Source: a virus (Duplodnaviria > Heunggongvirae > Uroviricota > Caudoviricetes). Taken from it: 64,000 nucleotides of DNA. Of the stretch, positions 1 to 15,708 are shown in pieces. Each line of letters opens with the position of its first letter. Position 1 is the stretch's first letter. The stretch lies in IMG/VR virus record IMGVR_UViG_3300022555_000011, positions 19,381 through 83,380 of that record. One strand, written 5' to 3'. The notes beneath the pieces are model-generated. The model saw nothing but the letters and a program-made list of their open reading frames with translations. It made no database searches and was not told the DNA's origin. The translations under genes were made by a program, and so were the position numbers.

Positions 1-43
1 TGATTCTAATGACTATAAGCTCAATTATGATGAAGACTTATAT

Positions 44-397
44 ATGGATTATAGTGAGGGTGTCATGAAAAAAAGAATACATCAGGTGGCTCTTAAATTT
101 TATTCCAAATCAATTGAAGGATCTTTGGATATTCCAGTTTATAAAATTATGTTTGAAATTAAATTGAAGCCAGTTTCTGAAATAAAATTTCAGAAGGACG
201 ATGATATGTTTGGCTGGAGCTTTGGTGAAAAACCAGTAAAAGTAATTAGATTTGTTAAAAAATGTGGTAAATCTTGTGAGTGGAATGACTTTAGTGGTCG
301 CTTAATAATGAAGAAATCTCAACTTGATAAAATGGACATCGATCTTTTGAAAATTCTAATTAATGAAGAAGGTGGTGAAAAAATCAGAGTAAAATAA
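44..397 (+). CDS. hypothetical protein
   Basis: 117-aa ORF in a tightly packed + strand run; no recognised motif. Confidence 0.55.
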   Translation: MDYSEGVMKKRIHQVALKFYSKSIEGSLDIPVYKIMFEIKLKPVSEIKFQKDDDMFGWSFGEKPVKVIRFVKKCGKSCEWNDFSGRLIMKKSQLDKMDIDLLKILINEEGGEKIRVK

Positions 398-411
398 AAA
401 AAAATTAAATT

Positions 412-729
412 ATGAAAATAGTGAAAACTTTTGAAGGATTTTTGAAAAATTCTTATAATTTTATTAAATTGGTAAATTTGCTTAGAAATTGGCAAAGTAA
501 ATATCAACCAGAAGATTATGATAGAGTTATTTCAAGTGCATTTGAACTCATAGATGATTATGAATTGGAGACTGGTAAACTTTCTCCTCCTTTTACTTTA
601 CCTAATGAACAATTAGGCACAGAGTTTATTACAAAATTTTTCAAAACAGCAGAAGATCATGGTTATGAGATAATTTCTAATCCATCAAATCGTGGTGATG
701 ATTTTACTACATTTAATTTAAAAAAATAA
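412..729 (+). CDS. hypothetical protein with MKxxKTFE leader (putative virion internal protein)
   Basis: Starts MKIVKTFEGF, matching the leader shared by many ORFs in 0.4-14.5 kb. Confidence 0.6.
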   Translation: MKIVKTFEGFLKNSYNFIKLVNLLRNWQSKYQPEDYDRVISSAFELIDDYELETGKLSPPFTLPNEQLGTEFITKFFKTAEDHGYEIISNPSNRGDDFTTFNLKK

Positions 730-737
730 TTATTGAT

Positions 738-1097
738 ATGACAAATATTACAACATCATTCGGGCAATTTCAAGATTCATTAAATGAAGATAAGAAATAT
801 ATTGATAAGGTTACATATTGTCTCACAGGAAGTCCAAAACCTTTATGGCCAACTAAAGCGGATTTTATTTCTGATATGGAAAAATGGGGATATAAATATA
901 CAACTTTAACTAAAGATACTGACATGCTAATAGCCGCAGACGAGGATTTAGGTACATTAAAATGTCAAAAAGCAGAGAAATATGGCATACCAATTTATAG
1001 TTATAATGATGCTTTTAAAAAGAAAGAATTATTATACAAACGAGTTATTAGAGGTAAAAAACTAGAGAATTTAAATAGATTATCTGAAGAAGATTGA
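738..1097 (+). CDS. stand-alone BRCT-domain protein
   Basis: YCLTGS...TKDTDMLIAADEDLGTLKCQKAEKYGIPI resembles the BRCT domain of NAD-dependent ligases. Confidence 0.7.
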   Translation: MTNITTSFGQFQDSLNEDKKYIDKVTYCLTGSPKPLWPTKADFISDMEKWGYKYTTLTKDTDMLIAADEDLGTLKCQKAEKYGIPIYSYNDAFKKKELLYKRVIRGKKLENLNRLSEED

Positions 1098-1098
1098 T

Positions 1099-1124
1099 AA
1101 AAAACACCTTGTTAGGTGTTTTTT
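1099..1124 (+). terminator. intrinsic terminator
   Basis: aaaaaacacct-tgtt-aggtgttttttt stem-loop with U tract. Confidence 0.8.
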
Positions 1125-1147
1125 TATTTTAAAACAATCATTTAGAC

Positions 1148-1182
1148 TTTATTTATTTTATATATACTATAAAATAAATAAA
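1148..1182 (+). promoter_or_regulatory. hairpin with TATATA late-type promoter upstream of LAGLIDADG gene
   Basis: 14-bp inverted repeat tttatttattttat/ataaaataaataaa overlapping tatatatac. Confidence 0.55.
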
Positions 1183-1193
1183 TAATTGAGGCT

Positions 1194-2123
1194 ATGTTAA
1201 GGAAAAAATGGACAGAAGAAGAAGTCGAAAAGTTAAAAAATTCATATCTAAATATGAGTACAAAAGAATTGTCTTTATTTTTAGATAGGACTGAGATTTC
1301 TATTATTGGCAAAATGCAGTTATTGGGTATAAATAGAATGTGGACTAAAAATGAAGATGATATATTAAGAGAGAATTATGGAATAAACAATTATGAGGAT
1401 TATAAATATTTATTACCAAATAGAACATTAAGTTCTCTATTTAATAGAGCACAAGTTTTAAAAATAAAATGTAAAGAAAAAATTAGAAATAATTATAAAT
1501 ATGATGTAAATCATCATTTTTTTAAGGATTTGTCCAATATAAATTGCTATTGGGCTGGATTTATTGCTGCTGATGGTTGGATAAAATCTGATTGTAATTG
1601 CTTAGGTGTAAAATTGGCAAAAAAAGATATAAAACATTTAGAGAAATTTAAATTCGATATTCAATCTAATTCACCTATAAGAGAAAAAAAAGCAAAAATT
1701 GATGAAAAGATTTTTTTACAAAGTGAAATAAATGTTTACTCCAGATATATTGTGCACGATTTATATGATAATTTTAATATAACTCCTAATAAAACTTTTA
1801 CTTTAATACCACCAAATATTGAAAACTTTGAACATAAAATTTCATATATAGTTGGTCTAATTGATGGTGATGGCACGATAGGAAAAAAAACTAATGCAAC
1901 TGATTTGAGAATTTCTTTAGCTGGCAATGAAGAAATTATAAAATGGTGTAAGTCTGTGTTAGTGGATCTTCTTAAATTAAGAAAATCAAAAAAAATTGCG
2001 TATAGTAATAAAATTTATAGCTTTAGTTTAGGTAATAAAAACTCTATAAAATTTATCAATTATGCAAAAAAATTAAATATACCTCATATGGAGAGGAAAT
2101 GGAATAGATATGGATTACAATAA
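1194..2123 (+). CDS. LAGLIDADG homing endonuclease with N-terminal WTEEE repeats
   Basis: YWAGFIAADG and YIVGLIDGDG motifs. Confidence 0.85.
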   Translation: MLRKKWTEEEVEKLKNSYLNMSTKELSLFLDRTEISIIGKMQLLGINRMWTKNEDDILRENYGINNYEDYKYLLPNRTLSSLFNRAQVLKIKCKEKIRNNYKYDVNHHFFKDLSNINCYWAGFIAADGWIKSDCNCLGVKLAKKDIKHLEKFKFDIQSNSPIREKKAKIDEKIFLQSEINVYSRYIVHDLYDNFNITPNKTFTLIPPNIENFEHKISYIVGLIDGDGTIGKKTNATDLRISLAGNEEIIKWCKSVLVDLLKLRKSKKIAYSNKIYSFSLGNKNSIKFINYAKKLNIPHMERKWNRYGLQ

Positions 2124-3132
2124 AGATTATTATAAAATTTTAGAAATTGATAAAAATTCATCTTATGATGAATTGAAAAAACAATATAGAAGTTTATCTA
2201 AATTATATCATCCAGATGTTATGAAGACTGGTGATGAGTTTAAATTCAAAGAAATTAATAACGCATTTGAAGTTTTATCAGATGCTAAAACCAGACAAGA
2301 GTATGATCAACGTAGTCCACATGGAAATTCCTATTCGCCAGGATTTGGTGGATTTCCAGGATTTGAATTTCATTTTAATCAAGGAGGTGGTGATATTCAC
2401 GATATATTTAGCCAATTTTTTGGAGGCGCAAACCCATTTGGAGGCGGATTTAACCCATTTGGTCAAAGAGAACAGTTTAGAGAAGATTTAGATATTAATG
2501 CTATTATAACAATAAATCTAAAACAGATATATTTAAATGAACAATTAAATATAAAATATAAGCGTAAAGTTCATTGCGATAGTTGTAATGGTACAGGCTT
2601 TGATAAAGAGAGTCATTCTGATATGTGCGAAATTTGTAATGGAAGTGGAGTAGATAAAGGAAAAGTTTGTGAGTATTGTAGAGGTGAAGGTAAGATTTAT
2701 GCTGAAACTTGTAAAAAATGTAAAGGTGAAAAGGTGATGTTAATTGATTCAGAAGTTAATTTGGCAAACATTTCTCAATTAAGAGAAAATATACAGAATT
2801 TACATAGAGGTTATGGTCACCAATCAAAATATTATAGAGAAAAGATTGGGAGTTTAATTTTGAATATTAATGTTGATAGGAGTGATGGTTATGAAATATT
2901 GAATGGTTATCAATTGAGGAAAGTATTGGATATTCATTTTCAAGATGCTATTGATGGTTCTGAATTGACACATATTCATGTTGATGGTAATGAAATTAAA
3001 ATTAAATTGCCAGCCAAAACAAAAAATGATGAGGTTTTAAGAATTAGAGAAAAAGGTTTATTAAGACAAGATAATACAAGAGATGATTTATATCTAAAGA
3101 TTAATATAATAATTGATTATAGTAGAATTTAA
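2110..3132 (+). CDS. dnaJ: DnaJ chaperone
   Basis: J domain with HPD, G/F-rich region, four CxxCxGxG-type repeats, C-terminal domain. Confidence 0.92.
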   Translation: MDYNKDYYKILEIDKNSSYDELKKQYRSLSKLYHPDVMKTGDEFKFKEINNAFEVLSDAKTRQEYDQRSPHGNSYSPGFGGFPGFEFHFNQGGGDIHDIFSQFFGGANPFGGGFNPFGQREQFREDLDINAIITINLKQIYLNEQLNIKYKRKVHCDSCNGTGFDKESHSDMCEICNGSGVDKGKVCEYCRGEGKIYAETCKKCKGEKVMLIDSEVNLANISQLRENIQNLHRGYGHQSKYYREKIGSLILNINVDRSDGYEILNGYQLRKVLDIHFQDAIDGSELTHIHVDGNEIKIKLPAKTKNDEVLRIREKGLLRQDNTRDDLYLKINIIIDYSRI

Positions 3133-3395
3133 AAATCTTCAAGACTTTTAACTAAGTCATTTAATTCTAAATTTAGTGTATTTACATATAATTCTAATAT
3201 ATCTGTTGAAAATACAACAGTTGCAATTTCACCTTCATTTAATTGAATTTCACCAACACCTACAACACCAGGTTCAAATCCTTTTATTGTGAATGATCTT
3301 TTGTTTGTTAATTTTTGTACATCAAAAATGGTTTTTTCAAGTTTAGTAATTTTGTCAACGATATTAGCGACAAGAAGTGCATTATCTCTATTCAT
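3129..3395 (-). CDS. hypothetical protein
   Basis: 88-aa ORF preceded by a TATATA motif on the minus strand. Confidence 0.6.
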   Translation of the reverse strand: MNRDNALLVANIVDKITKLEKTIFDVQKLTNKRSFTIKGFEPGVVGVGEIQLNEGEIATVVFSTDILELYVNTLNLELNDLVKSLEDF

Positions 3396-3435
3396 AATAT
3401 TTTTTTATTTTATATATTTAAAAAATAGAGTCTCA

Positions 3436-4149
3436 TCAAATAAATCTCCAGTTGATATAATCTAACGCTTGATAGACTTGTAACATTTTATTCCAATCTT
3501 TGCTTTTTGTTACAACTTGAAATACAAAATCCTTGAATTCTTTTAATCCTTTACTTTCAAATTCTTTTGTCATTTTTTTGCGATTTTCATATGATATTGG
3601 TGTATCTGTAGATTGACCTAATTGTTTTGCCTTGTCAGTTTTTAGATATAATACATATTCTGTACCTTCTCTCATATAATCATTTGCAACTTCTAATGCT
3701 TTATCAAAGGCTTTTTCCCAGTCTGGATTAGTCTTAATAAGATTTATAAAATGTCTTTTTGATTTTAAATCAAAAAAATTTGCTAACTGTTGTTCAGAAA
3801 AATTGTTTTCTTTTGATATTTTAACAAAATTTATAAGATCACTTGGTTTTTTTATTTGATTTATACTTTTATCTTCTACAATTTCTGATTTTGTATTTGA
3901 ATCTAATGGAGGAGGTGTCTGACCTTTTGTCATTCCGCCTAATGTAGCTGCTGTCATTAAGGCTCCAGCTGCAAGATTTTTCTTCCAATCTTCATATAAT
4001 CTAATCTTTGAAAGATTGTTTTCTTCAAAATTTTGTAAATCAATTTTATACTTTTGATCTTTATCTTCTTCATCATCAAAATTATCATAAAATTGAGCTG
4101 TGAAGTTATCAATTTCTTCTGATTCGTTGAATTTTTTTAAGTGTTTCAT
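3436..4149 (-). CDS. leader-bearing protein with internal hydrophobic segment
   Basis: MKHLKKFNES leader; KKNLAAGALMTAATLGGM segment. Confidence 0.65.
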   Translation of the reverse strand: MKHLKKFNESEEIDNFTAQFYDNFDDEEDKDQKYKIDLQNFEENNLSKIRLYEDWKKNLAAGALMTAATLGGMTKGQTPPPLDSNTKSEIVEDKSINQIKKPSDLINFVKISKENNFSEQQLANFFDLKSKRHFINLIKTNPDWEKAFDKALEVANDYMREGTEYVLYLKTDKAKQLGQSTDTPISYENRKKMTKEFESKGLKEFKDFVFQVVTKSKDWNKMLQVYQALDYINWRFI

Positions 4150-4403
4150 AGGTTAAATTTTATTGCTAATTTTTCTTCTCTGGTTAATGGTATTAAATTT
4201 GATTCATATTCCCAAAAACCATCGTCTAGTTTATAATTATTTATATTTCCATCTTTATATCTATCAGTTATCTTATATATTTTATTTTTGACTAATTTTA
4301 TTGCAGAATCTACTTTAACATGATCTTTTAATTTAAATTTATATCTAGTTGTTGGTTCTTTATAATTCTTATCTATAACTTTGATATTTCTTAAATGTTT
4401 CAT
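4146..4403 (-). CDS. small hypothetical protein (MKHL...KFNL family)
   Basis: Overlap-coupled ORF ending AIKFNL. Confidence 0.65.
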   Translation of the reverse strand: MKHLRNIKVIDKNYKEPTTRYKFKLKDHVKVDSAIKLVKNKIYKITDRYKDGNINNYKLDDGFWEYESNLIPLTREEKLAIKFNL

Positions 4404-4735
4404 AAGTTAAATTTTTTAATATTTTTAAGATTCTCAATTTTATCTTTATCTTTTATTGTAAATAATTTGGAAAGAACTTCATTTGATAATCTTCCATTAA
4501 ATCCAGTTAATTTAAATCTATCATATCCATATTTGTCTTTTTTAACTGTTTTTTTACTTCCTTTTTTAACAAATAATTTATCTCCACTAAGAGATAATTC
4601 TCTTGGACACATATATGGTTTTCTAATATAAATATTATGTTTAGCAATTAAAACATCGCCTGGCTCTACAAAATTAAAATCATCTTCAGTTGCTATATAA
4701 TGTTCCGATTCAAAATCTTCAAATAGTGTTATCAT
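4400..4735 (-). CDS. small hypothetical protein (leader + KFNL end)
   Basis: Starts MITLFEDFESE, ends KKFNL; 4-nt overlaps on both sides. Confidence 0.65.
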   Translation of the reverse strand: MITLFEDFESEHYIATEDDFNFVEPGDVLIAKHNIYIRKPYMCPRELSLSGDKLFVKKGSKKTVKKDKYGYDRFKLTGFNGRLSNEVLSKLFTIKDKDKIENLKNIKKFNL

Positions 4736-4983
4736 GGTTTAAAATTTGCAAAAGATTGTAAATTTTTTCTTTTATGTTTTTTGTCTTTTTTTAGATTTGG
4801 TGCTGATTTCATATATGCACCACTAATGGTTTGACCAATATCTCCACTTCCTGCAATAGAATCTGTCGCATTTACTGAGCCAGGAGTAGCAGAAGGTTGA
4901 GCAGCCACAACAGCGCCCATACCACCAGTGTTACCCATAGTTGCTGTAGCATCTTCTTTAATATATTCTTTAAATTTTTTCAT
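4732..4983 (-). CDS. Gly/Ala-rich small protein with MKKFKEYIKE leader
   Basis: Leader closely resembles T4 internal-protein MKTYQEFIAE; basic C-terminus. Confidence 0.65.
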   Translation of the reverse strand: MKKFKEYIKEDATATMGNTGGMGAVVAAQPSATPGSVNATDSIAGSGDIGQTISGAYMKSAPNLKKDKKHKRKNLQSFANFKP

Positions 4984-5869
4984 ATAAATAATTTTTTATT
5001 TTTTCTTCAATATTTTCATTATATTTAATTCTTAATAGATTTATATTGTTGTTAATACAAAAATTTGTTTTTATTTTATCATTCTTTTCTATTTCTGGAG
5101 TATAAAATTTTGTATTTATATTAAAGTGTTGTCTACCATCAAATTCTATTGTTAGATTATATGCTGGTAAATAAAAATCAAAAGGTAATGTTAGTATATT
5201 TTTACAGTTATCAAATCTTTTTTGATTTTCGAAATGAATATTTTCTTTTAATAAAAAATTTATAATTGCAGTCTCACCTTTAGATTTTATCAAACAATCA
5301 CAACCTATTTTACCTTTTAAATGGTTGTCAGCACTTTGTAAGAATGTTTTTCCACATTTTTGACATTTAATTGTAATTTTTGTTCTATTATTTATATATT
5401 CCTGATCTAATATTAAATATTTGTGGTTATATATTATGTTGGATCTATTAATTATTTCATCAATTGTTAATTTTATATTTTTTGCACATTTTGGACAACC
5501 TTGTTTCTGATATAAGTGCTTACCGTATTTTTGAGAGAATTCAGAATTACATTCTTTACAATGAATTTTAAGGTTATTGTCATTTCTTTCTACTATAATA
5601 TATTTGCTATTATTTAGAATATTAGATTTTTCTTGAATTTGATTTATTGTTAATTTACTATTTTTTATTGAGCATAAACATCCTTGTTTACTGTGTATAA
5701 ATTTATTTGAAGATTTTTCAAAATATTTTTTACAATTATTACAAAAAATTTTAAGTTTTTGTCTATCATTTAAGTATTCTTGACACTTATCTATTAAATA
5801 TGTATTATCACCATACAATATATTTGCACTTATTTGAATATTTTCTATTGTGTTCTTAACTCCTTTCAC
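4970..5869 (-). CDS. zinc-ribbon-repeat PD-(D/E)XK/Vsr-like homing endonuclease
   Basis: Repeated CxxC...H...GCPxC units; C-terminal FDFYLPAYNLTIEFDGRQH; GTG start. Confidence 0.75.
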   Translation of the reverse strand: MKGVKNTIENIQISANILYGDNTYLIDKCQEYLNDRQKLKIFCNNCKKYFEKSSNKFIHSKQGCLCSIKNSKLTINQIQEKSNILNNSKYIIVERNDNNLKIHCKECNSEFSQKYGKHLYQKQGCPKCAKNIKLTIDEIINRSNIIYNHKYLILDQEYINNRTKITIKCQKCGKTFLQSADNHLKGKIGCDCLIKSKGETAIINFLLKENIHFENQKRFDNCKNILTLPFDFYLPAYNLTIEFDGRQHFNINTKFYTPEIEKNDKIKTNFCINNNINLLRIKYNENIEEKIKNYLYEKI

Positions 5870-5893
5870 TTTTAAATTATTCTTTGTTATTTT

Positions 5894-6742
5894 TTAATTA
5901 AATAGTAATCCAATTCCTTGTATTGGTTGATTATTAGTTTGATATGTGAATTCTTTATATTCTTTACCTTCTTTTATTTCTTTCCAAAATTTAACCACAC
6001 CTGGGCAAGTACTATCATTTATATCGTGAAACATCACAATTTTAGCATATTGACCAATATTTTCATAGTCTGTTTTTATTCCTTCATAAGAATGATCCCC
6101 ATCAATAAATACCAAATCAAATTTTTCACCTTTGTAATCTTCACTTGTTCCAATATGTAAATTGATATATTTTTTAATATCTTCTGTCATATGTTTATCT
6201 TGTATGTCAACACCTACAGCTTTTAAATTTGGATTTTTTAATTTTAACATTTCTGTTATCAATAAATGAGAACCACCTTTGAATATGCCTACTTCACAAT
6301 ATGTATTTATATTATATTTTAATAATTCTAATATTGCGTCTGCAATTTGTTTAGGTGTTTGAAACATAGCTTCTTCTGTTCTATTATAAACCATATATTT
6401 ATTCCATTCACCATATGCATCTCTATCTTCAACACATAAGCCATAATCACAAACTAGATTTATAATGTCTGTGTCTTTAATAGATTCTAAATTTAAGTTA
6501 GATATATTTTCAACTAATATAGAATTTTTAGTTTTTTTATTTTTGAGATTTTTCTTTGAGTGTTTCATACTTTTGTATGTTTTGAACGTTGGTTCTGAGC
6601 TTGGTGTAAATTGAGTTCCAAATTCACCATTATTGCCAGATTTATAATATCCTCCACGAAATGGTAAAGAAGATATTCCTGCTATTCCTGATGCGTTTCC
6701 TGTGGAAACTTCTGATTCGTTAAATGTTTTTAAATGTTTCAT
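5894..6742 (-). CDS. class I SAM methyltransferase (Methyltransf_24-like) with MKHLKTFNES leader
   Basis: CEVGIFKGGS, VGVDI, FDLVFIDGDHSYE, FHDI motifs after a ~75-aa low-complexity N-terminus. Confidence 0.8.
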   Translation of the reverse strand: MKHLKTFNESEVSTGNASGIAGISSLPFRGGYYKSGNNGEFGTQFTPSSEPTFKTYKSMKHSKKNLKNKKTKNSILVENISNLNLESIKDTDIINLVCDYGLCVEDRDAYGEWNKYMVYNRTEEAMFQTPKQIADAILELLKYNINTYCEVGIFKGGSHLLITEMLKLKNPNLKAVGVDIQDKHMTEDIKKYINLHIGTSEDYKGEKFDLVFIDGDHSYEGIKTDYENIGQYAKIVMFHDINDSTCPGVVKFWKEIKEGKEYKEFTYQTNNQPIQGIGLLFN

Positions 6743-7041
6743 AAATTGTATTTATTTACTTTTGTATCTAATTTATATTGTTTTATTTCTTCTTTTGTTG
6801 CTTTCCTTAATTGATTTGTTTTAAGAAAAAGTTGCAAATTTATATTTGATAATGATGTTATTTTCCATAATAAATCATCTGTATCAGAATATAAATTTTC
6901 TACTCCACTAACTTTAAAAATATCATTTTCATATTTTTCATATCCATATGATCCAAAAATTGGAGATTTATCAATTTTAACAATATCATCCATACTGAAA
7001 GCCATTTCATCTCTAGATTCAAATGTTTTTAAGTATTTCAT
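6739..7041 (-). CDS. small protein, MKYLKTFES leader and KYNL end
   Basis: Leader and C-terminal motif; AATATATA motif directly upstream. Confidence 0.65.
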   Translation of the reverse strand: MKYLKTFESRDEMAFSMDDIVKIDKSPIFGSYGYEKYENDIFKVSGVENLYSDTDDLLWKITSLSNINLQLFLKTNQLRKATKEEIKQYKLDTKVNKYNL

Positions 7042-7119
7042 ATTGATTATATATTAAAATTTAAATCTTTATTTTATAGTAAGATTTATTTTATATATAC
7101 AAGAAAATAATTGACAAGT

Positions 7120-7686
7120 ATGAAAAAATTGTTCGAAGAATATGTTGAATCCGCTGATTATAAAATAGGTGCATTCTTTAAAGAATTAGAAGCTCAAATT
7201 AAGAAGTGGTTCGAAACTGGCTCATTATCCGCACAAGGATGTGAGTTAGATGGTGATATACAGATTTCAAATTATAATCCAATGGAAAAATTTTTAATTT
7301 GTAATTTTGTTGAGCCAGTTCAAGAGGGTGAAGAAGAGGATGGATCATCATTTAGATATCGAATGATATTTATGGTTAGACTTGATCAGATGAAAGGTGC
7401 AGACGCACAAGCACAAGGCGCACAAGCACAAATGGGATCACAACCTGGAGCACAAGGTGGAGAAAGTGCACCACCAGAACAAAAAAATCTAGAAATTAAT
7501 AAAGTCTTATTGAAAATACATCAATTTGATGAAGAAAATGTAGAAAAGGGAGAACTTGTGGAAGAAGTTAAAGTTGAAGATATTAAAGAAGATTTTATAA
7601 TTGATAAACTTGGTCAATTGAAAGATAAATCTGATGATAAAGGTACAGATGAGAATGATCTAAAAGATGATATTTATACAAAATGA
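7120..7686 (+). CDS. acidic protein with MKKLFEEYVES leader
   Basis: ATG at 7120 preferred over TTG at 7111; tatatatac upstream. Confidence 0.65.
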   Translation: MKKLFEEYVESADYKIGAFFKELEAQIKKWFETGSLSAQGCELDGDIQISNYNPMEKFLICNFVEPVQEGEEEDGSSFRYRMIFMVRLDQMKGADAQAQGAQAQMGSQPGAQGGESAPPEQKNLEINKVLLKIHQFDEENVEKGELVEEVKVEDIKEDFIIDKLGQLKDKSDDKGTDENDLKDDIYTK

Positions 7687-8135
7687 TAGTAGTTGCAAAC
7701 ACATTTATGCTTAATATTTTTAAGAAGATTTCTATATTCAAGTTGGATCTAGGCAAAAATCTTATGCCTATTAATAGTGAAAGAGTTGAAATTAAAGATC
7801 CTTTTATGTTGAAGTATATAAATATGACTGGTAAACAGATATTAACTTATGGCTCAATAGGAAAGCTTACTTTTTATCAAGATTTCACATTAGGAAATAC
7901 TGAATTTTATATTTTTAATGAAGATAGTATTTATGGATTAAATTATAGTGAATCAGATTCAAAAATAAGTCCAGAAAACTATTTAGCTGATATTGTGCAG
8001 GAAATAAATGAGAAAGATGGAATTAAAGAAAATCCTGATAAAGTTGATAAGAAAAAAGATCCAGATATAAAATTACCAGCAGATCAATATCTTCAAGAGA
8101 TGATTAAAAAAAGAAAAGAAGAAAATGTCAGATGA
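7683..8135 (+). CDS. hypothetical protein
   Basis: 150-aa ORF overlapping both neighbours. Confidence 0.6.
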   Translation: MIVVANTFMLNIFKKISIFKLDLGKNLMPINSERVEIKDPFMLKYINMTGKQILTYGSIGKLTFYQDFTLGNTEFYIFNEDSIYGLNYSESDSKISPENYLADIVQEINEKDGIKENPDKVDKKKDPDIKLPADQYLQEMIKKRKEENVR

Positions 8136-9096
8136 TAAATCAAATATGGTTATTGATAAACTTATTGTCAATAATCATGCATTGTTGAATAAAACACCAA
8201 ATGGTGAAACTTTATATGGTCCTCCATTTACTGCTTTTGTTGATTATGATAATAAATCAGAATATAAACAGAGTAGAAATAAGACACCAAGTGGTCAGGT
8301 AGTTTTTAATCCTCCTTTTACAAAATTTGTTGACCATGACAATCCATTAGAAAAAGGTGATAGAAATAAAACTCCAAATAATGAAATCTTATATAAAAAC
8401 GCTGAACTTAGTAATAAACTAAAAGATGAAGATGTTTATACAAATATACCATCCAAAAATAAATTAAAAGATCAGGAATTATATAAAAATATATCATCCA
8501 ACAATAAATTGAAAGATGAGGATCTTTACGCAAATGTTGATTCTAAACGTTCATTAAGTGGTGAGGTTTATGTAAATGTTGATTCTAAACGTTCATTAAG
8601 TGGTGATGTTTATGTAAATGTTGATTCTAAAAACACATTGAATAATGAGAGCCTTTATGTAAATTTTGGTTCTAAAAATGATTTGAAAAATGAACAGTTG
8701 TTTGTAAATGTCGATTCTAAAAATGACTTGAAAAATGAAGAATTGTTTGTAAATGTTGGCTCTAAGAATCAATTGAATAATGATGAACTTTTCAAAAATA
8801 CTGAATCTAAAAATACATTAAATAAAGAAATACTATTTGTAAATAAAGATGAAAAACATACTCTTAATGGAGATTCATTATTTGAAAATGTAGGAATAAA
8901 AAGAAAAATGGATGATACTGTATTATATGCTGGTAAGAAAGCTGATAATACATTGAATGGCGAGAATTTATATGCTAATGTTGATGATGCTAATACTAAA
9001 TTGACTAATGAGCAATTATATGATAATAATGTGAAAGATGATAACACTATCAAAGATAATAAGATATTGTATATTAATAGTAATGTCAAAAAATGA
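8125..9096 (+). CDS. tandem-repeat protein (14-16-aa repeats)
   Basis: About 14 copies of N-x-L-x-x-[ED]-x-L-[YF]-x-N-V-x-S-K. Confidence 0.75.
   Translation: MSDDKSNMVIDKLIVNNHALLNKTPNGETLYGPPFTAFVDYDNKSEYKQSRNKTPSGQVVFNPPFTKFVDHDNPLEKGDRNKTPNNEILYKNAELSNKLKDEDVYTNIPSKNKLKDQELYKNISSNNKLKDEDLYANVDSKRSLSGEVYVNVDSKRSLSGDVYVNVDSKNTLNNESLYVNFGSKNDLKNEQLFVNVDSKNDLKNEELFVNVGSKNQLNNDELFKNTESKNTLNKEILFVNKDEKHTLNGDSLFENVGIKRKMDDTVLYAGKKADNTLNGENLYANVDDANTKLTNEQLYDNNVKDDNTIKDNKILYINSNVKK
8532..8631 (+). repeat. 42-bp tandem repeat (about 2.4 copies) inside the repeat protein
   Basis: aaatgttgattctaaacgttcattaagtggtga[g/t]gtttatgt at 8532 and 8574, partial at 8616. Confidence 0.9.
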
Positions 9097-9416
9097 AATA
9101 TTTAAAACAATACGAAAAATTTGAAAATCTTCTTAAATATTCTAAATTAATAAGAGATTATTTTGATTATACTAAAGTGAAGCATGTAAAAATAGATCCA
9201 TTTTTGGTATATAAAGGTCGCACCTATACAGACATATATTTTAATAAAAAAACTAGAGAAATTACAGTTAAAGATTTTTGGAGTCATAAACCAATTGATC
9301 CTGTAATTGATGGAACAATGTTATTAATTAAATTGTATATTTATTTAACAAAAGTTACACCAGAGATAATTCCTTATCAAAAGATGAAAAAGAATGTGGA
9401 TAAATTTAATATTTAA
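9093..9416 (+). CDS. small protein, MKYLKQYEKFEN leader and KFNI end
   Basis: Leader and C-terminal motif. Confidence 0.65.
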   Translation: MKYLKQYEKFENLLKYSKLIRDYFDYTKVKHVKIDPFLVYKGRTYTDIYFNKKTREITVKDFWSHKPIDPVIDGTMLLIKLYIYLTKVTPEIIPYQKMKKNVDKFNI

Positions 9417-9688
9417 CACCAATCAACCATCTGATATTCTTTGCCGTTGAAATATACTGTATCAAAAGTGTCAAATCCAAAATCTTTCAAAAAATGATTT
9501 AATATTTCTGATTTTGTCATTTTAGTTATATCACAATCTTCTAAAAGTTCAACAACATCATTATAAGTGTAGAATGAGTGATCACCTTGTCCGTCATTTA
9601 ATCCAATAATAATTCTGTTTATTTCATCATCGGAAGAAGAATTTAACCATTCATCTGTGATTTTCTTTTTTTCTTTTTCCCAAAGCAT
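9413..9688 (-). CDS. hypothetical protein
   Basis: 91-aa acidic ORF downstream of the Nudix gene. Confidence 0.55.
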   Translation of the reverse strand: MLWEKEKKKITDEWLNSSSDDEINRIIIGLNDGQGDHSFYTYNDVVELLEDCDITKMTKSEILNHFLKDFGFDTFDTVYFNGKEYQMVDWC

Positions 9689-9699
9689 AATATTATGTA

Positions 9700-10365
9700 T
9701 TAATAGTAAATCTTTTTCAAAAATTCATTGTGGTGTGTGAAGGCTAAATCCATTTTGACTGCTCTGTTTAATAGAACCCATTTTCCATTTTTAGCATCGT
9801 CCCCAAATTTTAGTTCTGCTGAATTATTCATATGAAAAATAAATGGATAAGCAAAGAAATTTATTTCTCTTGGATCATTAGTTTTGAATACTCCAAGTGG
9901 CTCTATTCTTTTTATATCATCTAATTTTGCTAATGTTTCTTCTTGCAATTCTCTTTTAGCCGCGTGTTCTGGAGTTTCACCAGCATCAATAAAACCACCA
10001 GGAATAGCCCAACCACGACCATCTGATCTTTCAATTAGATAAACACGACCATCTCTAAATGGAATGGCATCAGCAGCAAAATTAGCAGCATAAATTATTC
10101 TATCACCATCTAATTCAAAATATTTTGTGACTGATTGTTGGTGACCACCAGAATTGACAAAATTTGCGAATTTGTCATCAATTAGTGTTATTTTACCAGC
10201 ATCTTCTTTTGGTAAAAAAAGTGTTCTACCATCTGCTGTAGTATAAAGCCAGTTTCCATTTTCATCCTTATTGATGCCAGTAATAGTGACCAATTTGGTT
10301 AGGTCAAAATTTGAGAGATTTTCTTTCATTAGAAATTTGTTATATTGTTTAAATTTTATTATCAT
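9700..10365 (-). CDS. Nudix hydrolase (ADP-ribose pyrophosphatase-like) with leader
   Basis: Nudix box GGFIDAGETPEHAAKRELQEET; starts MIIKFKQYNKFLMKEN. Confidence 0.88.
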   Translation of the reverse strand: MIIKFKQYNKFLMKENLSNFDLTKLVTITGINKDENGNWLYTTADGRTLFLPKEDAGKITLIDDKFANFVNSGGHQQSVTKYFELDGDRIIYAANFAADAIPFRDGRVYLIERSDGRGWAIPGGFIDAGETPEHAAKRELQEETLAKLDDIKRIEPLGVFKTNDPREINFFAYPFIFHMNNSAELKFGDDAKNGKWVLLNRAVKMDLAFTHHNEFLKKIYY

Positions 10366-10393
10366 ATAAAGATATAAAGATTTTTTTAAATAA

Positions 10394-10427
10394 ATAATTA
10401 TTTTCTTATATATAAGAAAATAATTAT
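10394..10427. repeat. perfect 34-bp palindrome centred on TATATA
   Basis: ataattattttcttata|tataagaaaataattat between divergent Nudix and tnpB genes. Confidence 0.85.
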
Positions 10428-10498
10428 AAAAATAGAAAAATATGACTTTATTTTATTTATATATACATTATACAATAATAAAAAAATAGTATAATAAA

Positions 10499-11689
10499 TT
10501 GAAGATAATTAAATATACATATAAATTTAGGTTAGAACCAACACAAGAACAGGAAATTCTATTAAATAAGCATTTTGGCTCTGTTAGATACGTATATAAT
10601 TATTTTTTGAATCAAAGAAAAGAAGAATACTTAAATAATAAAAAATCAATAACTTATAATCAACAATCAAGTTTTCTAACTCAATTAAAGAAAGATGAAG
10701 AGACAAATTGGCTCAGTGAAATAAATAGTCAGACGTTACAGTATTCTCTTAAATGTTTAGACCAAGCATATCAAAATTTTTTTAACAAAAGAACTCAATT
10801 CCCAAAATTTAAATCAAAGAAAAATAAAAATTCATTTACTTCTCCACAATACGTTAGAGTTAAAAATAATAAATTATTAATTAGAAAATTTAATGAAGGA
10901 ATTGAAATGATAATGGAAAGAAAAATTAAAGGAACAATTAAACATTGTGTTGTAAGCAAAACTACTACTGGAAAATATTTTGTTTCAATTTTAACAGAAC
11001 AAGAATATAAACCAATTCAAAAAACAAATAAATCAGTAGGCATAGATTTAGGAATAAAAGACTTTTTAGTGTTATCTGATGGAACGAAAATCAAGAATCA
11101 CAGATTTCTGAAACATTACGAAGGAATATTAACATTAAATCAAAAGCATCTATCAAGGAAAACAAAAGGATCAAATCGTTATGAAAAACAAAGATTAAAA
11201 GTTGCTAGAATTCATGAAAAAATAACTAATTCTAGAATGGATTTAATTCACAAAACAACTAATAAACTAATTCGTGATTTTGATATAATTTATTTGGAAG
11301 ACTTAAATATTAAAGGAATGATGAAAAATCATAAACTATCAAAAGCAATTAGTGATGTTAGTTGGGGTATATTTATTAATATAATAGAATACAAAGCAGT
11401 ATGGAACGATAAACAAGTTATTCATATTGATAGATTTTTTCCTTCATCCAAAGCCTGTTCTAAATGTGGTTGGATTAACAATAATTTAACTTTAAAAGAT
11501 AGAACTTGGGCTTGTAAGTGTGGTTCTGTTCATGATAGAGATATAAATGCTGCAATAAATATTCTTAACGAAGGATATCGTAAAAATATATCAGATGGAA
11601 CGTCTGATTATGAGCGTGGAGCAAAAATAAGACCAGTTTCGACTGGCGCAAGCAACGAAACGCTTAAAAAGAAGGAACTTGTTTCCTGA
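10499..11689 (+). CDS. tnpB: IS200/IS605-family RNA-guided endonuclease TnpB
   Basis: N-terminal YKFRLEPT HTH; RuvC motifs GIDLG, LEDL, RDINAAINI; zinc finger; no tnpA nearby. Confidence 0.92.
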   Translation: MKIIKYTYKFRLEPTQEQEILLNKHFGSVRYVYNYFLNQRKEEYLNNKKSITYNQQSSFLTQLKKDEETNWLSEINSQTLQYSLKCLDQAYQNFFNKRTQFPKFKSKKNKNSFTSPQYVRVKNNKLLIRKFNEGIEMIMERKIKGTIKHCVVSKTTTGKYFVSILTEQEYKPIQKTNKSVGIDLGIKDFLVLSDGTKIKNHRFLKHYEGILTLNQKHLSRKTKGSNRYEKQRLKVARIHEKITNSRMDLIHKTTNKLIRDFDIIYLEDLNIKGMMKNHKLSKAISDVSWGIFINIIEYKAVWNDKQVIHIDRFFPSSKACSKCGWINNNLTLKDRTWACKCGSVHDRDINAAINILNEGYRKNISDGTSDYERGAKIRPVSTGASNETLKKKELVS

Positions 11690-11735
11690 AACTATTACAG
11701 AAATGTAATAGTAGTTCATAAGTTGTTATCATTAA
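11560..11735 (+). ncRNA. putative TnpB omega/reRNA with right end near 11718 (boundaries approximate)
   Basis: Hairpin ctattac-agaaat-gtaatag then tagttca, resembling an IS605-type right end, just after the tnpB stop. Confidence 0.45.
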
Positions 11736-11746
11736 ATTATTGAATA

Positions 11747-12439
11747 TCAATTAATTAAAGCACTGGTTCCTATTCTATCAACTATACCAGAAAGTTCTTT
11801 TATCTGTGATAAACTTCGAACCCCACCAGAAAACTTTATTTTCATTTCTTCTGGTAATATTTTTCTCATAAATTTAACTTTATCTACTTTAGTTTGGAAA
11901 GAATCATCTTTTGGTAATTTTCCAGTTGATGTCATTACAAAATCCACACTAGTGTCAATACACATATTACAAATTGCTTCAATTTCTTGATAATTTAGAG
12001 CACCTATTTCAATAATTACTTTAATTGTAACACCTTCACGATGACAATATTCTGATAATTTTCCTATTTCCTCTTTTAATTTTTCGTGTTCTTCTTCTTG
12101 TTTAATTAATTTATAATTAACAACAACATCGATTTCTGATGCACCGTTGACAATCGCATTATCAATTTCATCAATTTTTCTCTTTATATCTTCATCACCT
12201 TTTGGAAATCCAATTAATGCTGAAATTTTAATTTCATTCTTTAGAAAAGAATTCGCAGTTGCTATAAATTCTGGTAAAATACAAATAGAATAAAATCCAT
12301 TTTCTTCTGCTTCTTTACACAATTCTTTAATTTTATCGTTACTTAAATTGTCTGATATTTTAGTATAATCAATCAATTTATGATATTGTGCCTTTTCTTT
12401 ATTTTCTAAATATTCAAATATTTTCTTATAAACAACCAT
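11747..12439 (-). CDS. deoC: deoxyribose-phosphate aldolase-like protein lacking the Schiff-base Lys
   Basis: IDYT, GFPKG, GASEIDVV, IKVIIE, FSGGVR, RIGTS motifs; DFVMTSTG in place of DFVKTSTG. Confidence 0.85.
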   Translation of the reverse strand: MVVYKKIFEYLENKEKAQYHKLIDYTKISDNLSNDKIKELCKEAEENGFYSICILPEFIATANSFLKNEIKISALIGFPKGDEDIKRKIDEIDNAIVNGASEIDVVVNYKLIKQEEEHEKLKEEIGKLSEYCHREGVTIKVIIEIGALNYQEIEAICNMCIDTSVDFVMTSTGKLPKDDSFQTKVDKVKFMRKILPEEMKIKFSGGVRSLSQIKELSGIVDRIGTSALIN

Positions 12440-12487
12440 TGTGAGGATCTTTATTTTTTTCTATATATAAAAAAAACTAAATAGATT

Positions 12488-13474
12488 TTGAGACAAAATA
12501 TAAATTATATTGGTTCTAAGTATTCGTTATTAAAGTTTATAGAAGAAAATATAATATTGACAGTCGGTGACTTGTCTAATAAGGTTTTTTGTGATTTATT
12601 TGCTGGCACAAATATAGTTGGTTCTAATTTTAAAGATAAAGTAAAGCAAGTCATATCAAATGATATTGAATATTATAGTTATGTAATAGCAAAAAAATAT
12701 TTAAGCAATAAAAATATTGATTGTGGTAAAGAAATAGAAATATTAAATTCATTAGATGGAATAGAAGGTGATATTTTTAATTACTATTCAGAAAATGGCT
12801 CATCTAAAAGATTATATTTCTCAGAAGAAAATGGTAAAAAAATAGATGCAATTAGACAGAAAATTGAAGAGTGTTGTGATAAAGATTGTTATTACTATTT
12901 ATTAACATTATTACTTGAAGCCGCTGATAAGGTCGCAAATACGACTTCAGTTTATGGCGCATATTTAAAACAAATAAAAAAATCTGCCAGTAAACCTATT
13001 ATTTTAAGAGATATTGAAAATGATATTATTGATGATCAGATTAATATTTGTTATAATGAAGATTCTAATGAATTAGTTAAAAAAATAAAAGGTGATATTT
13101 TATATATTGATACACCTTACAATCATAGACAATATGGTTCTAATTATCATATTTTAAATGCAATTGCAAAATATGATTTTAGTGTTGAGCCAGGTGGAGT
13201 TGTTGGATTAATGGATTATAATAAATCTGATTATAGCTATAAAAGAAAAGTGAAAACTACATTTGAAGATTTAATAAAAAATTCAGATTTTGAACATATT
13301 TTTATTTCATATAATAATGAGGGTATTTTATCTCTTGATTACTTTAAAGATATGTTAGGTAAATACGGTAGACTAATAATTTTTGAAAAAGATTATAAAA
13401 CATATAAAGCAGATAAGAAAAGAAATAATAAATCGGAATTTGTTATAGAATATCTATTCTATTTAAAAAAATAA
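12488..13474 (+). CDS. DNA adenine methyltransferase (D12 class)
   Basis: NYIGSK, DLFAGT and YIDTPYN (DPPY variant); TTG start. Confidence 0.85.
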   Translation: MRQNINYIGSKYSLLKFIEENIILTVGDLSNKVFCDLFAGTNIVGSNFKDKVKQVISNDIEYYSYVIAKKYLSNKNIDCGKEIEILNSLDGIEGDIFNYYSENGSSKRLYFSEENGKKIDAIRQKIEECCDKDCYYYLLTLLLEAADKVANTTSVYGAYLKQIKKSASKPIILRDIENDIIDDQINICYNEDSNELVKKIKGDILYIDTPYNHRQYGSNYHILNAIAKYDFSVEPGGVVGLMDYNKSDYSYKRKVKTTFEDLIKNSDFEHIFISYNNEGILSLDYFKDMLGKYGRLIIFEKDYKTYKADKKRNNKSEFVIEYLFYLKK

Positions 13475-13496
13475 AATCCTGATAAATCAGGATTTT
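13473..13496. terminator. bidirectional terminator between convergent genes
   Basis: aaaatcctga-taaa-tcaggatttt. Confidence 0.8.
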
Positions 13497-13506
13497 GTTT
13501 TATGAA

Positions 13507-13875
13507 TTATTCTGGTCTTCTTTGACTATATCCAGTGTGTGCGCCAGATGCAGCTGCACCCATTGCTTCAAGATCAGTCCACAATGGCCTATATTGTCCA
13601 GCTTTAATATAACCTCTCCAATTATTGTCTGCAGCGGCTTTTAACATAAGCATTCTTTTCTTTTCAATTCTTTCAGGTGTCCATCCAGCTTCAGATGCTT
13701 TTGCTAAATATTCTTCAATATCAGCTTCTATTTTTGCTTTTTTTGATTCTTTATCTTCTCCTGATCTATGACCTGTTGCAAAATTTCTAATGTCTCCACC
13801 AAGTTTACGAGCACCACCCCAGAATTCATTAGTTTCTTCTATTGCGTGGTCTTCAAATGTTTTTAAGTGCTTCAT
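13507..13875 (-). CDS. protein with MKHLKTFED leader
   Basis: Leader; AATATATA motif directly upstream. Confidence 0.7.
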   Translation of the reverse strand: MKHLKTFEDHAIEETNEFWGGARKLGGDIRNFATGHRSGEDKESKKAKIEADIEEYLAKASEAGWTPERIEKKRMLMLKAAADNNWRGYIKAGQYRPLWTDLEAMGAAASGAHTGYSQRRPE

Positions 13876-13955
13876 AATTATATATTTTATTTTTTTTAAT
13901 ATTGTATATATTAAATTTTTTTTTATTTTTTTATTATTCTATATATTAATATTTT

Positions 13956-14537
13956 TTATTCAATTATTTTTAATTTAGCACCTGATCGTATTAATTCTTT
14001 GATACTATCAGTGTTTAAATTTTCTTTAAATTTATCTGTTTTTTTATCTTTATCTTTTAATAACCAATTGTTTCCAGAATTTGATGTTTCATAAGTATAT
14101 GTATTTCCATTAGATGTTAATTCAATAGTTTTTGCTGTTAATTTTTTATAAAAATCTTCAACTTCACCTTTAATTGTATAAATTTCAATTGGATACCATT
14201 TATTATCTTTATAATATTGTAGAATCAAAAAATTTGGATTATCTAAAATTGACTCATTCCTATCATATAGAAAGAAGAATTTCATATCTATATTCTTTCT
14301 TAAGAAATTTTCAATATCCATAGTAGTTTCCATTTCACCTTTTTTAAGATGATCTTTAAATAATTGCTTATTGAAATTTGCATCATCATATAGAAGTTCA
14401 ATTGGCTTGTGCATATATTCATCATTTGATAAATGTATTGTGAAAAAATCACCTTTTTTATCATTGATACTTGATAATAATCCATCAACGTCTGTAGTCA
14501 TAGATTCTTTGATATATTCTAAGAAGTTTTTTATCAT
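13956..14537 (-). CDS. protein with MIKNFLEYIKES leader
   Basis: Leader; AATATATA motif directly upstream. Confidence 0.7.
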   Translation of the reverse strand: MIKNFLEYIKESMTTDVDGLLSSINDKKGDFFTIHLSNDEYMHKPIELLYDDANFNKQLFKDHLKKGEMETTMDIENFLRKNIDMKFFFLYDRNESILDNPNFLILQYYKDNKWYPIEIYTIKGEVEDFYKKLTAKTIELTSNGNTYTYETSNSGNNWLLKDKDKKTDKFKENLNTDSIKELIRSGAKLKIIE

Positions 14538-14589
14538 ATTACTTATATATTAATTTAAACAATCAAAAAATTATTTGATATATATAATA

Positions 14590-15708
14590 ATGGATAAGAA
14601 GAGTATAATAGATTTATCAAATAAGATTCATAATTTTTATTATGATTATGCCAAAGTTGAGGATTCTGGTAAAATGAATAAAATAAAAATTATATGTCCT
14701 ATTCATGGTGAATTTGAACAGAGATTGGATGTTCACCTTAAAGGATCTGGATGCATAAAATGTGGAATAAATAGTAGAAAAAATAATATATTTGAGTTAA
14801 TAAGTAAATTTAATGTAGTACACAACAATAAATATGATTATTCTTTGACTTACTATGTTAATAATAAAAGTAAAATAAAAATTATATGTCCTATTCATGG
14901 TGAATTTGAGCAATCTACATCAAAACATTTATTCGGCTCTGGTTGCAAAAAATGCTCAGTGGATAATTCTAAAAAAAATAGAACTAAATCGAAAGATCAA
15001 TTTATAAAAGAATCAAACAAAAGGCATAATAATAAATATGATTATAGTCTGGTTAATTATGAAAACAATTATAAAAAAATTAAAATTATTTGTCCTGATC
15101 ATGGTGTTTTTGAACAAATTCCAAATAATCATTTATCTGGATCAGGTTGTTTTAAATGTTTTCATATTTATATTAATAATTTTAATACTTTAGATATATT
15201 AGAAATTTTTGATAATTTTAATAATGTACATGGTGATAAATATGATTATTCTTTGGTAGATTATGTGAATGGTGATATAAAAATTAAAATTATCTGCGAG
15301 GTTCATGGTATATTCGAGCAGACCCCAAATAGTCATAAAAATGGTTCTGGCTGTCCTCATTGTGCTAATATAAAAAATAGGTTAAAATATATTGATATTT
15401 TGAAAAGTAGATTTGAATCCAATATACAAATAACTCCAAATTTTAATAAATCTGCTTGTGCCATATTTGATAATATTATGAAAGATAATAATTCATATAT
15501 TCAACACGCTATGAATGATGGTGAATTTTTTATTAAGGAATTAGGATATTGGTTGGATGGTTATGATAAAGTTAATAATATTGTATATGAATTTGACGAA
15601 AAATATCACTTTAAAAAAGGAGTATTATCACCAAAAGATATAATACGACAGATGGAAATAGAAAATTTATTAAAATGCAATTTTATCAGAATAAAAAATA
15701 ATAATTAA
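14590..15708 (+). CDS. zinc-ribbon-repeat (DUF723-like) homing endonuclease
   Basis: Four KYDYS...IICPxHGxFEQ...HxxGSGCxxC repeats; C-terminal LDGYD...EFDEKYH; ATG at 14590 follows TATATA. Confidence 0.75.
   Translation: MDKKSIIDLSNKIHNFYYDYAKVEDSGKMNKIKIICPIHGEFEQRLDVHLKGSGCIKCGINSRKNNIFELISKFNVVHNNKYDYSLTYYVNNKSKIKIICPIHGEFEQSTSKHLFGSGCKKCSVDNSKKNRTKSKDQFIKESNKRHNNKYDYSLVNYENNYKKIKIICPDHGVFEQIPNNHLSGSGCFKCFHIYINNFNTLDILEIFDNFNNVHGDKYDYSLVDYVNGDIKIKIICEVHGIFEQTPNSHKNGSGCPHCANIKNRLKYIDILKSRFESNIQITPNFNKSACAIFDNIMKDNNSYIQHAMNDGEFFIKELGYWLDGYDKVNNIVYEFDEKYHFKKGVLSPKDIIRQMEIENLLKCNFIRIKNNN

Follow-up and report, generated by a model that had tools for sequence, protein, structure and literature searches.

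A short amino-terminal leader on diverse proteins of a huge-phage genome fragment and its possible role as a capsid-targeting propeptide

The window analyzed here comprises 64,000 nucleotides (positions 19381 to 83380) of the 147,380-bp IMG/VR record IMGVR_UViG_3300022555_000011, a tailed-phage sequence; positions given below are those of the window unless marked as genome positions. Between 412 and 14537, a series of otherwise unrelated open reading frames (ORFs) begins with a similar short leader. A preliminary description of the window had listed 14 such ORFs, likened the leader to the capsid-targeting sequence (CTS) of phage T4 and proposed that it was a modular address tag for packaging and injection. 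The record has a G+C content of 25% and a CheckV completeness estimate of 21%, and it encodes tail fibres, baseplate proteins, a 1211-aa tail sheath, intein-split replication genes, many homing endonucleases, TnpB and DnaJ. The sheath of the 735-kb phage LR756501 shares 50% identity with this tail sheath; that of a complete 640-kb phage flanked by direct terminal repeats (labelled G003) aligns with it over the full length at 53% identity. Given these matches, the source can be assigned as a piece of a huge myophage.

All 14 starts were present as placed, but only about 8 to 9 of the 14 leaders held. Two classes were distinguished. Class A was defined by the regular expression M-[KNE]-[HY]-[LI]-K-x-[FY] followed by E or NE (typical form M-K-[HY]-[LI]-K-x-[FY]), and class B by the T4 CTS pattern [FY]-x-E-[FY]-[IV]-x-E (form M-K-K-F-x-E-[FY]-[IL]-x-E). 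Within the range, strict class A leaders occur in five ORFs (starts 4149, 6742, 7041, 9093 and 13875), with a near match at 412; class B leaders start at 4983 and 14537, and a looser version at 7120 (Table 1). The leaders at 4403 and 4735 (which have a K-F-N-L tail instead), 10365 (Nudix) and 12439 (DeoC) are weak or degenerate, and the ORF at 738 has none. Three of the cargo types that had been named, Nudix, DeoC and BRCT, are thus the weakest examples or leaderless, but the methyltransferase is tagged. The N-terminus of the DeoC-family protein (IFEYLE) may simply be native. Inspection of the ORFs agreed with the statement that there is no leader on the interspersed endonucleases, DnaJ, TnpB or the D12 DNA methyltransferase. 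The preliminary description had missed a conserved C-terminal tail, leader genes outside the range, and the fact that three proteins on its list, together with the ORF at 738, are homologous to one polyprotein of related phages.

Table 1. Leader genes, neighbouring genes and promoter-like motifs in the window
Feature	Position	Strand	Remarks
105-aa ORF, near-class-A leader MKIVKTFEG	412-729	+	PSSM score 4.9; ends ...TFNLKK, tail-like; no Pfam family
119-aa BRCT-like ORF, leaderless	738-1097	+	63-64% identity to P0138 and P0157, residues ~184-283
DnaJ	2110-3132		Phage gene, no leader
237-aa ORF, strict class A leader MKHLKKFNES	3436-4149	-	N-terminal acidic segment corresponds to module 3 of relatives' polyproteins
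85-aa ORF, degenerate leader MKHLRNIK	4146-4403	-	K-F-N-L end; stop overlaps next start (ATGA)
111-aa ORF, loose leader MITLFEDFES	4400-4735	-	K-K-F-N-L end; ATGA overlap
83-aa ORF, class B leader MKKFKEYIKE then D	4732-4983	-	Capsid N-arm homologue, basic tail
Homing-endonuclease-like ORF, leaderless	4970-5869	-	DUF5889 and zinc finger; between methyltransferase gene and 83-aa gene
282-aa ORF, strict class A leader MKHLKTFNES	5894-6742	-	Module 1, then Methyltransf_24
100-aa ORF, strict class A leader MKYLKTFES, K-Y-N-L tail	6739-7041	-	First gene of minus-strand leader operon
AATATATA promoter-like motif	7048-7055	-	14 nt upstream of start 7041
TATATATA promoter-like motif	7092-7099	+	28 nt upstream of start 7120
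188-aa ORF, loose class B leader MKKLFEEYVES	7120-7686	+	
107-aa ORF, class A leader with Tyr 7 (MKYLKQYEK)	9093-9416	+	K-F-N-I tail, yet no leader gene downstream
221-aa Nudix protein, domain residues 97-215	9700-10365	-	N-terminus weakly leader-like
230-aa DeoC-family protein	11747-12439	-	Residues 8-13 (IFEYLE) weakly class-B-like
122-aa ORF, strict class A leader MKHLKTFED	13507-13875	-	
AATATATA motif	13879-13886	-	11 nt upstream of start 13875; further copies 13905-13912 and 13940-13947
193-aa ORF, class B leader MIKNFLEYIKE then S	13956-14537	-	
AATATATA motif	14544-14551	-	14 nt upstream of start 14537

A scan of the genome and its relatives, the check that the preliminary description had proposed, recovered the strict motif at 13 of the 181 ORF starts of the record, including members outside the range (genome 114293-118216 and 145883). 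In ten related huge-phage genomes a degenerate DNA version of the leader pattern gave 5 to 42 matches per genome, and a reversed control pattern gave none in the same ten. Scores of at least 12 from a position-specific scoring matrix (PSSM) were reached at 12 of the 181 N-termini versus 1 of the 41,032 positions inside proteins. Since the PSSM had been trained on those same N-termini, the first of these counts is circular; the regular expression and the reversed control check the motif independently. The leader pattern was present at more than 118 IMG/VR loci. Prokaryote genomes totalling 596 Gb gave only 52 matches, of which at least 17 lay on contigs of one metagenome-assembled genome. Several contigs of that assembly (JALOAD0100000xx, 'Candidatus Muiribacterium halophilum' bin 137) are rich in leader matches, with as many as four in 8 kb, and are probably huge-phage DNA binned with the bacterium. 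On this distribution the leader appears close to phage-specific, and a general host-type signal was ruled out by the near absence of the motif from prokaryote genomes. Neither megablast of window positions 1 to 15000 nor tblastn with two of the small leader proteins found a match in 50,697 phage records (INPHARED), and no paper on such leader expansions was found in the literature library searched.

The proposal that the leader is a modular tag on diverse cargo was borne out in that the cargo is unrelated: after both ends were trimmed, 250 leader proteins fell into 165 BLAST clusters. The cargo includes a lysozyme (genome 114293), the Methyltransf_24 enzyme, small fast-changing SH3-like proteins and repeat proteins that, as judged by eye, resemble ankyrin or leucine-rich repeats (LRR). 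The SH3-like proteins are the largest cargo family, and an AlphaFold2 model was made from an alignment of 31 sequences, among them one protein of this genome. The core was modelled with confidence (69 of 119 residues with a predicted local distance difference test score [pLDDT] of at least 90; predicted template modelling score, 0.73), whereas residues 1 to 11, although they form the most conserved alignment columns, had a pLDDT below 50 and no secondary structure. The leader is thus predicted to be disordered, and a role of the N-terminus as part of the fold was ruled out by this model. The C-terminal tail was modelled as a helix end. A fold search of the PDB with the model gave weak SH3-barrel-like matches only (best E value of 0.015).

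It had also been claimed that a TATATA motif precedes most leader genes. This was found only for operon-first genes; leader genes further along an operon instead have an ATGA overlap between their start and the preceding stop. Within the 90 nt before the gene, the sequence [AT]ATATATA was present for all six class A leader genes and all six tail, fibre or baseplate genes that come first in their operons, compared with 0 of 12 genes for replication or nucleotide metabolism. It resembles the T4 late promoter TATAAATA, and taken as a proxy for expression class it would mark the leader operons as late type. Its spacing to the ATG is 11 to 16 nt in class A genes versus about 30 nt in structural genes, and because of this short distance the 5' untranslated regions of class A operon-first genes are implied to be very short or absent. 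The motif often follows a T-run and is also found before many homing-endonuclease genes; examples are at 7048-7055, 12462-12469 and 14544-14551.

The codons of the leader and tail vary under fixed amino acids (CAT/CAC, TAT/TAC, TTA/CTA/ATT/ATA, TTT/TTC and AAT/AAC), and the amino acid changes that do occur are conservative (H/Y, L/I and F/Y). Codons ending in C make up 5 of 13 at leader codon 3, above the genome background (10% TAC, 23% CAC), and AAC encodes 40% of tail asparagines versus 13% in the genome; since conserved residues use the rarer C-ending codons, there is no DNA constraint at the level of A/T content. No hairpin was found at eight stop/start junctions, where the minimum free energy was 0 to -5 kcal/mol (z of +0.13 to +1.42 versus shuffles). 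Because synonymous codons vary, C-ending codons exceed background and the junctions lack hairpins, the signal is the peptide, and the junction RNA is simply unstructured. A shared start could also arise from selection on translation initiation in an AT-rich, non-Shine-Dalgarno host, favouring an unstructured, A-rich start with Lys as codon 2, some genes possibly being leaderless or re-initiated. All eight junctions are indeed no more structured than shuffles, codon 2 is AAA in most leaders, and in class A operon-first genes the upstream motif lies 11 to 16 nt from the ATG. We nevertheless regard this explanation as very improbable, since the motif is missing from other genes of this phage that are ATGA-coupled or well expressed, and His/Tyr 3, Thr 6, Phe 7 and Glu 8 are specific residues with synonymous variation rather than merely A/U-rich codons. 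It would also leave the C-terminal tail unexplained, and in relatives the leader occurs internally as well, at the module junctions of polyproteins described below.

The internal proteins of T-even phages are diverse defence proteins that have only the CTS in common and are encapsidated by it into the scaffolding core (PMC3012670). The first 10 residues of IPIII are enough for packaging; residues 4 and 7 of the CTS govern targeting and residues 8 and 10 processing, and gp21 cuts after L/I-x-E (PMC9026906). The leader described here is similarly a stretch of about 10 residues on otherwise unrelated, diverse, fast-changing proteins, with a Glu at the presumed cut. The likeness to the T4 CTS, as first claimed, was complete for class B and partial for class A. 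The class B leaders at 4983 (MKKFKEYIKE) and 14537 have all four determinants, namely, an aromatic residue at 4, an aromatic residue at 7, I at 8 and E at 10 (F4, Y7, I8 and E10 in the full pattern), whereas class A has positions 4 and 7 and the Glu without L/I-x-E, its sequence being new and without L/I at P3. Positions 4 (L/I) and 7 (F/Y) hold in all 13 leaders of this genome and in all 238 leaders retrieved from relatives, by construction of the search expression.

A link to the head was suggested by the relatives, which have a T4-type Gp23 capsid protein and, in one copy, a weak S77-like protease domain. Pfam Gp23 capsid proteins were found in 5 of 5 near-complete leader-bearing genomes (E values down to 4E-28), among them G003, whose capsid protein matched T4 gp23 in the PDB (5vf3; E value of 5E-8). 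In G003 and in another leader-bearing relative, G005, the capsid gene follows an ORF of 720 to 804 aa, and the G003 copy of this ORF has a weak match to the S77 protease N-domain. A complex predicted between the 804-aa ORF product of G003 and a leader protein of the same phage scored 0.00, which is no answer and speaks neither for nor against binding.

The 83-aa protein encoded at 4732-4983 was found to be 52% identical over 50 aa (E value of 2E-11) to residues 48 to 94 of the G003 capsid protein, which form the N-arm directly after the presumed propeptide. The sequence match thus identifies it as a paralogue of the T4-type capsid N-arm. In an alignment of 13 sequences, the I-K-E then D of the 83-aa leader falls on the [IM]-N-E then N of the capsid proteins, and because of this coincidence of ends the leader appears to stand where the capsid protein has its propeptide. 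At the leader end, [ILFM]-x-E then D-A is conserved in the 43 database relatives of the 83-aa protein, and some members of the family have a class A leader in place of class B, so that the two classes are interchangeable on one cargo. Together, these comparisons indirectly support a link of the leader to the head.

Searches with the 282-aa methyltransferase retrieved proteins of 140 to 330 aa that matched only its first 55 to 60 residues. In these relatives, a chain of modules was recognized, consisting of module 1, an internal leader, module 2, an acidic module 3, and a BRCT-like module ending in K-Y-N-L. Module 1 is the methyltransferase segment after the leader (a Gly/Ser/Asn-rich segment and a basic stretch, residues ~10 to 75), module 2 the N-arm copy, module 3 the start of the 237-aa protein (3436-4149) and the BRCT-like module the ORF at 738-1097. 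Two of these proteins, P0138 and P0157, are single polyproteins of 280 to 283 aa, and tblastn with these two matched window positions 6718-6563, 4956-4735, 4149-3985 and 798-1031 at 49 to 75% identity. Four separate genes of this genome (738-1097, 3436-4149, 4732-4983 and 5894-6742), one of them on the other strand, therefore correspond to consecutive modules of one polyprotein, and the homing endonuclease at 4970-5869 and two small SH3-like genes lie between the split modules. A polyprotein-like gene thus appears to have been fractured in this genome. Where the modules are fused, module 3 has neither Met nor leader at its junction (...P-L-K-E then S-E-D), whereas here a full class A leader precedes the same S-E-E segment. 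The comparison argues that module 3 gained its leader on becoming a separate gene and that leaders mark module boundaries; a piece translated by itself thus has a leader of its own.

The methyltransferase provided a second such series. Homologues at least 68% identical to it begin with a leader-like M-[IK]-[KR]-x-F-x-x-[FY] and a linker, whereas neither the homologues about 50% identical nor the CmcI-like enzymes of cells have a leader, their sequences beginning with the domain. Since the tag is present only in close phage relatives, the enzyme is likely to have acquired it. The closest relative, P0044 (90% identical, 355 aa), continues for 73 further residues to a K-Y-N-I tail; the ORF here ends at 282 aa and a homing-endonuclease-like gene comes next, and a tblastn search of this genome did not recover the missing C-terminal part. 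Many leader-bearing homologues (P0046, P0047, P0049, P0050 and others; 440 to 476 aa) are extended at the C-terminus by a conserved domain of about 230 aa, which has no Pfam match and is not present in the window.

The C-terminal tail, K-[FY]-N-[LIV], ends about 15 proteins of this genome, four of them within 412-14537, compared with 7 internal occurrences of the tetrapeptide in about 41,000 residues. At the IMG/VR loci it was found in 167 of 303 leader ORFs; of the 243 tail ORFs, 103 have an ATGA overlap with the leader gene that follows. Such overlaps, together with the tandem arrays of leader genes and the interspersed homing endonucleases, would be expected if the conserved ends were boundaries of DNA cassettes, the junction of about 40 nt from tail and stop to start and leader serving as recombination microhomology and the peptide conservation being a by-product. 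The two small SH3-like genes inserted exactly between modules that are contiguous in relatives, with the next module bearing a leader absent from the fused form, also fit this explanation. We consider it improbable, however, because synonymous sites are free while amino acids are fixed or change conservatively, leaders are found on operon-first genes with no upstream tail and tails on operon-last genes, and the eight junctions have no hairpin. A cassette mechanism could moreover aid the spread of a tag without being its function. Integron attC arrays and the promoter-stem-loop (PeSL) cassettes of T4-type phages are likewise arrays of small swappable genes with conserved boundaries; the junctions here differ in lacking a hairpin and in being conserved at the peptide rather than the DNA level, and an integron-like attC array was ruled out for this genome by the same eight junctions.

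The interpretation that we hold with moderate confidence is that the leader is a capsid-targeting propeptide, like the T4 CTS, which is removed after Glu. A short disordered N-terminal peptide in two forms, A and B, would serve as a portable propeptide, attaching its protein to the prohead core so that the protein becomes enclosed in the capsid, and the head protease would then remove it after the Glu, as in the T4 CTS. The genes would be expressed from late-type operons, many of them chained by ATGA overlaps, and the tagged set would combine head-related modules (the capsid N-arm paralogue and the Gly/Ser-rich and acidic segments) with enzymes (methyltransferase and lysozyme) and SH3-like proteins. 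Core binding, cleavage, packaging and injection of the leader proteins are steps that we infer from the genes and their comparison with T4. The tail could be a second address or a processing signal; T4 Alt is cut at both termini (PMC9026906). More tentatively, leader and tail may form a two-ended address, the leader being cut after Glu, that loads dozens of interchangeable effectors together with mimics of the capsid N-arm, the modules being made as one polyprotein or, after insertions of homing endonucleases and cassettes, as separate, re-tagged genes.

Several observations weigh against the capsid-targeting interpretation. A head module was not found on the fragment (~21% of the genome), and the only protease-like ORF on it, of 150 aa, had a Pfam S77 score of 21.3 bits, under the cut-off of 27. 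The class A pattern is wholly absent from the related 735-kb phage LR756501. In class A leaders the Glu is at 8 or 9, and P3 of the presumed cut is F, T or K rather than L/I. The phmmer alignment of the G003 capsid protein with T4 gp23 covered the C-terminal half only, and the cut in the huge-phage capsid protein is placed by its motif. Some genomes have at least 40 leader genes in tandem arrays of small paralogues, which is like the plastic accessory regions of other phages. The leader proteins of the IMG/VR relatives are mostly acidic, with a median isoelectric point of 5.3 (mixed values, 5.3 to 9.6, were found for the 13 of this genome), and the internal proteins of T4 are basic. Finally, nothing in the T4 CTS model corresponds to the conserved C-terminal tail.

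Alternatively, the leader, with or without the tail, could be a peptide handle for a purpose other than the capsid, such as recognition by a chaperone (DnaJ, 2110-3132), timing of protein lifetime by a protease or degron, an intracellular compartment, or a common docking partner of fast-evolving effectors. Selection at the peptide level, disorder and cargo diversity would fit any short linear motif; two-ended tagging of more than half of the leader proteins lies outside the T4 CTS model; the proteins of relatives are mostly acidic; and the ankyrin- or LRR-like repeat cargo is typical of cytoplasmic effectors. Such a handle is, in our judgment, a somewhat unlikely explanation. It would leave unexplained the paralogue of the capsid N-arm and the alignment of the leader with the propeptide end, the match to T4 determinants 4, 7, 8 and 10, and the upstream motif held in common with tail genes, and no partner for it was identified.

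With respect to known systems, a leader with a capsid-targeting role would differ from the T4 CTS in scale: T4 has three internal proteins, compared with 13 strict leaders in the 147 kb of this record and as many as 42 pattern matches in a 330-kb relative. It would also differ in the conserved tail on more than half of the leader proteins, in the internal leaders of the relatives' polyproteins and in the mostly acidic cargo of the relatives. In the giant phages phiKZ, 201phi2-1 and SPN3US, head and ejection propeptides are removed by gp21-like proteases after S/A-x-E (PMC9026906, PMC5694885). Those phages are comparable in having large genomes and many packaged head-internal proteins processed after Glu by a diverged gp21 homologue; the clade here differs in having a recognizable shared tag and a T4-type Gp23 capsid protein. 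To our knowledge, the phiKZ, 201phi2-1 and SPN3US propeptides are long and mutually dissimilar, with no shared short leader. Cargo-loading peptides of encapsulins are short terminal tags on diverse cargo that bind the interior of an HK97-fold shell, and they are usually C-terminal, Gly/Ser-linked and uncleaved. They offer a possible model for the C-terminal tail, with which they have no sequence similarity and which is a helix end in the structural model.

The capsid N-arm paralogue, the match of a polyprotein to split genes, the series of methyltransferase homologues with and without the tag, and the promoter contrast are new here. If the leader is a capsid address, sequence alone would be enough to list the proteins that uncultured huge phages deliver into their hosts, among them candidate factors for anti-defence and takeover. 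The use of one tag for many cargoes, as in T4, would then reach a scale larger by an order of magnitude and employ new tag sequences, and the tags might be useful for packaging foreign proteins into phage heads. The copy of the capsid N-arm is of interest for head assembly, and the comparison of polyprotein and split genes suggests how components of the prohead core may evolve and tolerate gene fragmentation.

The 150-aa S77-like ORF mentioned above (genome 130227-130679; L004:9228-9680, + strand) matched phrog_207 with an E value of 2.4E-12, and a PDB sequence search with it returned nothing meaningful. With its subthreshold Pfam score and no PDB match, it was not called a prohead protease; it may be a noncatalytic paralogue. 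Its neighbours are acetyltransferase, methyltransferase and transposase genes, with no head module around it. LR756501 has a comparable open frame of 181 aa in addition to a large protease-like ORF.

Remoter matches of the tail sheath were to Flavobacterium and Prevotella phages, which hints at a host among the Bacteroidota. The AAA, UvsX and NrdJ genes of the record are split by inteins and endonucleases. Two ORFs elsewhere in the genome begin with nearly the T4 CTS itself (MKTYQEFIAE), namely, MKTYNQFIEA (genome 145075-145386, - strand) and MKTYSKFIEL (genome 96602-97351, + strand), and the former sits after a gene with a K-Y-N-I tail, with an ATGA overlap. At the IMG/VR loci L019, L035, L051 and L087, the Gly-Met-Gly ... 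Gly-Ser-Gly-Asp block of the N-arm was found in proteins starting M-P-S-x-S-x-A/T-Q-Q-K/R-L-M-G, a start that we take to be DUF3008-like, and the N-arm-like segment may be a widespread module of small phage proteins. A 323-aa ORF at 8125-9096 (+ strand) consists of about 15 degenerate 13-residue repeats (roughly L-[YF]-V-N-V-D-S-K-N-x-L-x-x-E); it matches no Pfam family and shares its plus-strand operon with the leader genes at 7120 and 9093.

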